DNA of 64,000 nucleotides from Escherichia coli (GCF_003334255.1 NZ_QOWU01000003.1), one strand, 5' to 3'; numbered from the stretch's first letter, positions 16,542 through 16,749 are shown. The notes: generated from the letters alone by a model not told the origin. A program made the numbers and translations.

Positions 16542-16749
16542 GAGTTTTACTCCCTGTTTCAACAATCATCCTATTTTGCCATATCAGAAAAATAACATAG
16601 CGGTATAAATCAACAATTCCATATGAAATTGCTGCTACCACCAATACAACTTTAACTGCCTTAAATCAAAAATTGTCGCAGCAAGGTTAACTAAAATCCC
16701 AGTTCGTTAACATTTTTGCGTTTTGATAGCGCAACCTTCAGGAAAAATT

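Follow-up and report, generated by a model that had tools for sequence, protein, structure and literature searches.

Class II promoters activated by FNR carry the binding site centred near position −41.5, as in narG, dmsA and nirB, and usually have no match to the −35 hexamer. Three proteins whose genes are under FNR control, UbiT, UbiU and UbiV, serve ubiquinone synthesis without O2 in E. coli, and this pathway supports respiration on nitrate, the making of pyrimidines under anaerobic conditions and the transition to aerobic growth after anaerobiosis. In a survey of Pseudomonadota, 87% of ubiTUV loci had predicted FNR-type sites ahead of ubiU, ubiT or both; where ubiT and ubiU diverge, 96% of the genomes had such predicted sites in between, and the positions were compatible with activation (PMC11707229). 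Arias-Cartin et al. (mBio 2023, PMC10470549) described two FNR sites in E. coli: F1, TTGATTTAAGGCAG, precedes the ubiUVp start by 36 nt, and F2, TTGATTTATACCGC, precedes the ubiTp2 start by 33 nt and follows that of ubiTp1 by 19 nt. GFP fusions to ubiUVp and ubiTp2 are activated by pBAD-fnr, whereas the ubiTp1 fusion is not. On the chromosome, mutF1 abolishes anaerobic UbiV and leaves the UbiT level unchanged, while mutF2 abolishes the anaerobic induction of UbiT and keeps its basal level; deltaF2 likewise removes anaerobic UbiT induction, and neither mutF1 nor mutF2 affects the other operon (PMC10470549). Binding in vivo is documented by an FNR ChIP-chip peak at yhbT/yhbU with the motif TTTAACTGCCTTAAATCAAAAATT (Grainger et al., PMC1802558), and ChIP-seq combined with transcriptomics places yhbUV among the operons directly activated by FNR (PMC3688515).

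We analyzed a stretch of 64,000 nucleotides of E. coli DNA (GCF_003334255.1, NZ_QOWU01000003.1; the window) and conclude that its positions 16542–16749 are almost certainly the known divergent control region of ubiT and ubiUV, activated by FNR at F1 and F2 in class II fashion. FNR regulation of these genes has already been published, and it explains the locus. To that picture we add the window coordinates of the elements, the matrix rank of F1 and the weakness of F2, a footprint over 77 sequences, a leader hairpin and a decayed palindrome.

The 2 kb at 15900–17900 are 100% identical to E. coli K-12 MG1655, are found in 5425 of 5426 complete E. coli genomes, and hold the RefSeq genes yhbS, ubiT, ubiU and ubiV. 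The ubiT gene (yhbT; 16017–16541, minus strand) encodes an SCP2-domain accessory factor of 174 residues from a GTG codon at 16541–16539, a start that is kept in all 76 related loci where it could be located, and its product scores 153.6 bits against the NCBIfam equivalog NF047962 (cut-off 46.9). On the plus strand, ubiU (yhbU; 16750–17745) begins with ATG at 16750 and encodes a U32-family Fe-S protein of 331 residues (NCBIfam equivalog NF047963; 559.9 bits, cut-off 440); it is co-transcribed with ubiV (yhbV; 17754–18632, plus strand; NCBIfam NF047965, 363.1 bits, cut-off 275), as judged by the operon structure given in PMC10470549. The spacer between the two divergent starts measures exactly 208 bp (16542–16749) and has a G+C content of 34.1%, compared with 51.2% for the whole window. 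Coordinates, base composition, NCBIfam and RefSeq therefore all agree with the original prediction, which had described ubiT (minus strand, GTG start) and ubiUV (plus strand) as diverging from an AT-rich region of 208 bp.

All 5425 E. coli genomes with this spacer carry it at 99% identity or more, whereas the surrounding 2 kb (15900–17900) show only 95–99% identity in 2922 of these genomes; the non-coding spacer is thus at least as constrained as the genes that flank it. At its two ends lie probable ribosome-binding sites: GGGAGT (16549–16554, minus strand), 7 nt before the ubiT GTG and within a block that is at least 95% conserved, and AGGAA (16740–16744, plus strand), 5 nt before the ubiU ATG and likewise at least 95% conserved. 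Mechanical ORF calling extended ubiU to an in-frame TTG at 16723, which was rejected as a start, as 16712–16735 is poorly conserved and contains indels. On the far side of ubiT, yhbS (15520–16023, minus strand) overlaps the ubiT 3′ end by 7 bp, so that the two genes are probably co-transcribed; we take YhbS to be HqbA. A 2023 PNAS paper describes HqbA as an acetyltransferase that modulates RNA binding by Hfq, and it also mentions ubiT and Fnr (PMC10710024).

The spacer contains ATCAA at 16609–16613 and again at 16665–16669, and TTGAT at 16723–16727 as part of TTGATAGCG (16723–16731). A canonical TTGAT-N4-ATCAA had been searched for in the original prediction and not found, and this observation stands, the best matches in the spacer having 3 mismatches in 10. 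Matches of that quality number 300 in the window against 249 expected (about 1 per 210 bp), and 83% of spacer shuffles contain an equally good one. By mismatch counting alone, neither F1 nor F2 exceeds chance. Because consensus counting cannot separate sites from chance, we adopted a leave-one-out weight matrix, symmetric and of 18 columns, built from 30 ChIP-chip-peak motifs of Grainger et al. (PMC1802558) with the yhbT/yhbU entry excluded, and scored 63,983 window positions with it (median of the training set, 12.6 bits). F1 (16656–16669) reaches 14.66 bits, above the training median, and ranks first among the 63,983 positions, so that it is identifiable from sequence alone; its orthologue has the best matrix score of its own 6-kb locus in 61 of 76 loci. 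F2 (16600–16613) scores 3.26 bits and ranks 390th in the 64-kb window, the median of its orthologues being 3.1 bits, and it is not callable from sequence alone. The standing of F2 as a site accordingly derives from the published mutants and from conservation, not from motif strength.

The weight-matrix scan that the original prediction proposed as a check was thus run for FNR and placed F1 at the top of the window. The same prediction held that the spacer offers only fragments resembling half-sites and that regulation could not be assigned from sequence alone. This view has to be revised in two respects, as both ATCAA pentamers are the consensus halves of the published sites F1 and F2, and F1 can be assigned by its matrix rank of 1/63,983; it remains correct for F2, with its 3.3 bits. 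The FNR signal is significant only when the weight matrix, conservation and the published experiments are brought in. In practical terms, a weight matrix together with phylogenetic footprinting recovers F1 unambiguously where consensus counting does not, and F2 exemplifies a site that sequence does not reveal by itself and that takes experiment to establish. The second- and third-best matrix scores of the window, TTGATTTCAATCAT at 4517–4530 (14.2 bits, within a long ORF) and TTGCTCCAGTTCAA at 16125–16138 (12.4 bits, within ubiT), are probably due to chance.

Conservation was assessed on 80 Enterobacteriaceae loci with UbiU at 92–99% protein identity, from which 77 distinct spacers were aligned. 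F1 (16656–16669, minus strand, centre 16662.5), which reads CTGCCTTAAATCAA on the plus strand, has 7 of the 10 consensus bases, among them the G/C of both halves. At least 95% conservation is seen at 13 of its 14 bases in the 77 sequences, including all 10 half-site bases, and only the spacer base 16662 varies. The published mutF1 primers change ATCAA to TCATC at exactly window positions 16665–16669 (PMC10470549). The ChIP-chip motif corresponds to 16651–16674 and is therefore F1 itself. The coordinate listed for yhbUV by Myers 2013 (3,299,421), converted with the offset that follows from the site centre of Grainger et al., falls at about 17045, some 0.38 kb to the right of F1 and within ubiU, where there is no strong FNR-like site.

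The published distance of 36 nt from F1, taken together with the hexamer TAAAAT at 16692–16697 (plus strand), would put the ubiUVp start at about 16704–16705. TAAAAT, the probable −10 element, is at least 95% conserved in the 77 sequences, and no −35 match was found at ubiUVp. The centre of F1 would then lie at about −41.5 to −42.5, a position that is good to 1–2 bp because it is rebuilt from the quoted distance and the chosen −10. Two conserved GTTAAC hexamers, at 16685–16691 and 16706–16711 and 20 bp apart, flank the ubiUVp −10 and start; the pair matches none of the regulator consensus sequences tested, the comparison with ArcA giving 5 mismatches, no better than shuffles.

F2 (16600–16613, minus strand, centre 16606.5; GCGGTATAAATCAA on the plus strand) also has 7 of the 10 consensus bases. 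Conservation is at least 95% at 11 of its 14 positions and at 9 of its 10 half-site bases; position 16606 is conserved to 90%, and 16604 and the spacer base 16605 vary. In both sites variation falls mostly within the N4 spacers, and across the 77 aligned sequences the degenerate halves, CTGCC and GCGG, vary no more than the ATCAA halves do. The mutF2 primers change ATCAA to TCATG at exactly window positions 16609–16613 (PMC10470549). The published account consulted describes no in vitro FNR footprint on F2. From the published distance of 33 nt, the FNR-dependent start of ubiTp2 would lie at about 16566–16567, served by a candidate extended −10, TG-G-CAAAAT (16573–16581, minus strand), in which the TG, A-11 and T-7 are at least 95% conserved. 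F2 would accordingly be centred at about −39.5 to −40.5 from ubiTp2, again to within 1–2 bp, as this figure too is rebuilt from the quoted distance and the chosen −10.

The distal promoter ubiTp1 would start at about 16632–16633, as estimated from the published 19-nt distance to F2, which places F2 at approximately +26 relative to ubiTp1. A candidate −10 for ubiTp1 is TATTGG (16646 to 16641, minus strand). The TTGATT half of F1 (16669 to 16664, minus strand) lies 17 bp upstream of this hexamer and could therefore double as the ubiTp1 −35. With a half of F1 at a possible −35 and F2 at about +26, FNR might dampen P1 while activating P2; the published finding that the UbiT level is unchanged in mutF1 argues against a large effect of FNR on P1. 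In the E. coli poultry-water isolate EEC_W5 (L081, NZ_CM130020.1) an IS1 element interrupts the spacer at a point that separates F2 from ubiTp1/F1, about 16624 in window terms, so that ubiT is cut off from its distal promoter and the two FNR sites are moved about 0.8 kb apart.

Based on the published experiments and the conservation of the sites, we propose the following arrangement. Under anaerobiosis, [4Fe-4S] FNR binds two separate 14-bp sites, each made of one perfect and one degenerate half. From about 41–42 bp upstream of the ubiUV start, F1 activates a promoter with a good −10 (TAAAAT) and no −35, and F2, some 40 bp ahead of the start of the proximal ubiT promoter P2, activates P2, which has an extended −10 (TGgCAAAAT). 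In both cases the activator would overlap the −35 region and contact RNA polymerase directly, as expected of class II. The distal ubiT promoter P1 is independent of FNR and supplies basal aerobic UbiT, and F1 and F2 act independently of each other. The −10 elements TAAAAT and TGnCAAAAT are conserved and spaced as class II activation would require; we infer both the choice of these hexamers and the distances of −40 to −42 from those quoted in PMC10470549. Anaerobic induction and control by FNR, which the original prediction had expected, are borne out by the published fusions, mutants and ChIP data. Expression irrespective of O2 at both promoters, which the prediction named as the outcome that would speak against it, is not what the published work found: ubiUVp and ubiTp2 are FNR-dependent and anaerobically induced, and the distal ubiTp1 alone is O2-independent (PMC10470549).

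The mismatch counts and shuffles given above, together with the 3.3 bits of F2, would also fit a reading in which the pentamers arose by chance as half-sites in an AT-rich stretch and induction is indirect or proceeds via ArcA, CRP, NarL or IscR. The published mutF1 and mutF2 alleles already refute it, since mutation of either ATCAA abolishes FNR-dependent induction (PMC10470549), and we consider this reading extremely improbable. It also has to contend with the FNR ChIP signal on F1 (PMC1802558, PMC3688515), with the position of F1 at the head of the window by matrix score, and with the near-invariance of F1 and F2 across genera while the adjoining spacer drifts. As for the other regulators, consensus scans of the E. 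coli spacer for CRP, ArcA, NarL/NarP, IHF, IscR type 2 and Fur gave nothing above shuffles, and a search of the accessible papers found no link between ArcA and the regulation of yhbU or yhbT. The remaining fragment, TTGATAGCG, contains a perfect TTGAT pentamer and could be read as a further FNR half-site, as the original prediction had listed it, or as the −35 (TTGATA) of a promoter closer to ubiU, since a sigma-70 scan pairs TTGATA at 16723 with an AATTAT ending at 16751 (9 of 12 matches). Either reading is highly improbable, if slightly less so than chance half-sites at F1 and F2. As an FNR site the fragment scores −3.0 bits, its bases are just 0–40% conserved among the 77 spacers, with indels in the stretch, and it lies about 18–19 nt downstream of the ubiUV start, in the leader, so that the prediction failed on this point. 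As a promoter, TTGATA/AATTAT was rejected: its ‘−10’ overlaps the ubiU ATG, so that the transcript would be leaderless and miss the conserved AGGAA, and a single promoter-like match, the only one of the scan, is what shuffles produce (mean 0.9). Moreover, mutF1 alone abolishes UbiV (PMC10470549), which leaves no second productive ubiUV promoter in evidence. Direct activation by FNR at F1 and F2 is therefore the explanation that we retain.

Other element types were also sought. No terminator was found in the spacer region, and no Rfam family reached its gathering score in 15400–17400; the only match, obtained at a permissive threshold, was CRISPR-DR22 at 16573–16609, which fell short of its gathering score (21.9 bits, where 50 is needed; E = 0.16) and was taken as chance. 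Elsewhere in the window, Rfam reports at gathering score the SraG sRNA, the S15 leader, naRNA4, the rimP leader, two tRNAs and the greA leader (26492–26663, 26893–27007, 28520–28590, 33289–33389, 33481–33554, 37340–37423 and 44076–44197), a set that this part of the E. coli chromosome would be expected to contain.

Two further elements emerged from the comparison of spacers. Between F2 and F1, to the left of the F1 centre and at a fixed distance of 24.5 bp from it, 72 non-Escherichia sequences (loci L005–L080) carry the palindrome TATTGGTGyCAyCAATA, whose outer arms are near-invariant and whose three middle positions are less constrained. The published box of PdhR reads (A)ATTGGTnnnACCAAT(T) (PMC7660256), and 12 of these sequences, from Citrobacter and Salmonella, agree with ATTGGTnnnACCAAT in 12 of 12 bases. 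Escherichia has an 11-bp deletion in this area, with loss of the left arm and retention of the right arm ACCAAT (16640–16645), and this deletion accounts for the F1–F2 spacing of 56 bp in Escherichia compared with 65–67 bp in most other genera. What is left in the window is a putative remnant of 17 bp, TGCTGCTACCACCAATA (16630–16646), which overlaps the ubiTp1 −10 and start area. Compared with the PdhR box the E. coli remnant has 3 mismatches and a GCT...ACC core, and 12% of shuffles equal it. The GGT/ACC core is what PdhR needs most (PMC7660256); an intact GGTnnnACC is present in 12 of the 72 non-Escherichia sequences and is absent from E. coli. Since the outer TATTG/CAATA is the most conserved part, and not the GGT/ACC core of PdhR, we treat PdhR as a lead, short of a finding, and describe the palindrome as resembling the PdhR box without counting it as one. 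The E. coli genomic-SELEX paper on PdhR does not mention ubiT or yhbT, and a search of the accessible papers found no link between PdhR and ubiT.

The second element is a putative hairpin in the ubiUV leader, UUGCGUU-UUGAU-AGCGCAA (16716–16734, plus strand), just 5′ of the ribosome-binding site, and TTGATAGCG forms its loop and 3′ arm. In E. coli it is unexceptional when taken alone (−7.3 kcal/mol, z = −0.69), and across genera the median z is just −1.1, with four loci lacking the hairpin. In most genera the sequence at this position is another one, frequently richer in G+C and again self-complementary. On a structure-blind MAFFT alignment, pairing is found in 73.9% of cells as against 33–55% with the partners slid, double changes occur in 47 cells as against 12–33, and none of 500 shuffles attains the values seen for pairing and double changes, the named structure having been derived from the same sequences as those tested. 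RNAalifold gave no consensus fold on the MAFFT leader alignment. Many G-U pairs fit an RNA read from the plus strand. In Klebsiella and Raoultella the hairpin is followed by UUUUU and resembles a terminator. Conservation of a ubiUV leader hairpin is, on this comparative evidence, moderately supported.

Together these elements raise the possibility that the spacer carries undescribed inputs beside FNR, namely a PdhR-like (GntR/FadR-type) palindromic operator over ubiTp1 in most non-Escherichia genera and a structure-conserved leader hairpin that would act on mRNA stability or translation. Such inputs would add to the FNR model and do not compete with it; we put them forward tentatively, as rather unlikely though by no means as remote as the alternatives weighed above. 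In their favour are the hairpin pairing that is kept despite sequence change, with G-U pairs on the expected strand, the fixed position of the palindrome in 72 sequences with a perfect PdhR box in 12, and the conserved GTTAAC at 16686 and 16706 on either side of the ubiUVp −10 and start. These observations are countered by the poor z-scores of the hairpin and its absence from four loci, by the failure of RNAalifold to return a consensus, by the derivation of the structure from the tested sequences, by the retention of the GGT/ACC core in only 12 of 72 sequences with the left arm lost in E. coli, and by the silence of the genomic-SELEX paper on ubiT/yhbT; the conservation of CAATA could, in addition, reflect the ubiTp1 −10 instead. 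If real, an operator at P1 would tie the basal supply of UbiT to pyruvate and respiratory status, and a hairpin beside the ribosome-binding site could tune the stability or translation of ubiUV mRNA. Confirmation of the two elements would amount to a modest extension of the regulatory picture, mainly in other genera.

When set against the systems described at the outset, the locus is the K-12 spacer of Arias-Cartin et al. (PMC10470549): the sequence is identical, with the same F1 and F2, the same ubiUVp, ubiTp1 and ubiTp2 and the same mutated bases, and the locus itself shows no difference. The likeness to class II FNR promoters lies in the single dimer site that would overlap the −35 region of each promoter, the recognisable candidate −10, the absence of a −35 and the anaerobic dependence on FNR. 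Unlike those promoters, (i) F1 and F2 have one consensus half each (7 of 10 bases), with degenerate halves that are themselves conserved, and (ii) two such units stand back to back, 56 bp apart and independent, with an FNR-independent promoter between them. The palindrome of Citrobacter and Salmonella is like the PdhR box (PMC7660256) at 12 of 12 specified bases and in its place over the ubiTp1 −10 and start, a typical repressor position, whereas E. coli keeps the right arm only and most genera combine an imperfect GGT/ACC core with invariant outer bases. Finally, the survey of FNR/Anr sites (PMC11707229) is predictive, experimental proof being confined, according to that paper, to E. coli and P. 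aeruginosa, and the window represents the E. coli reference case.
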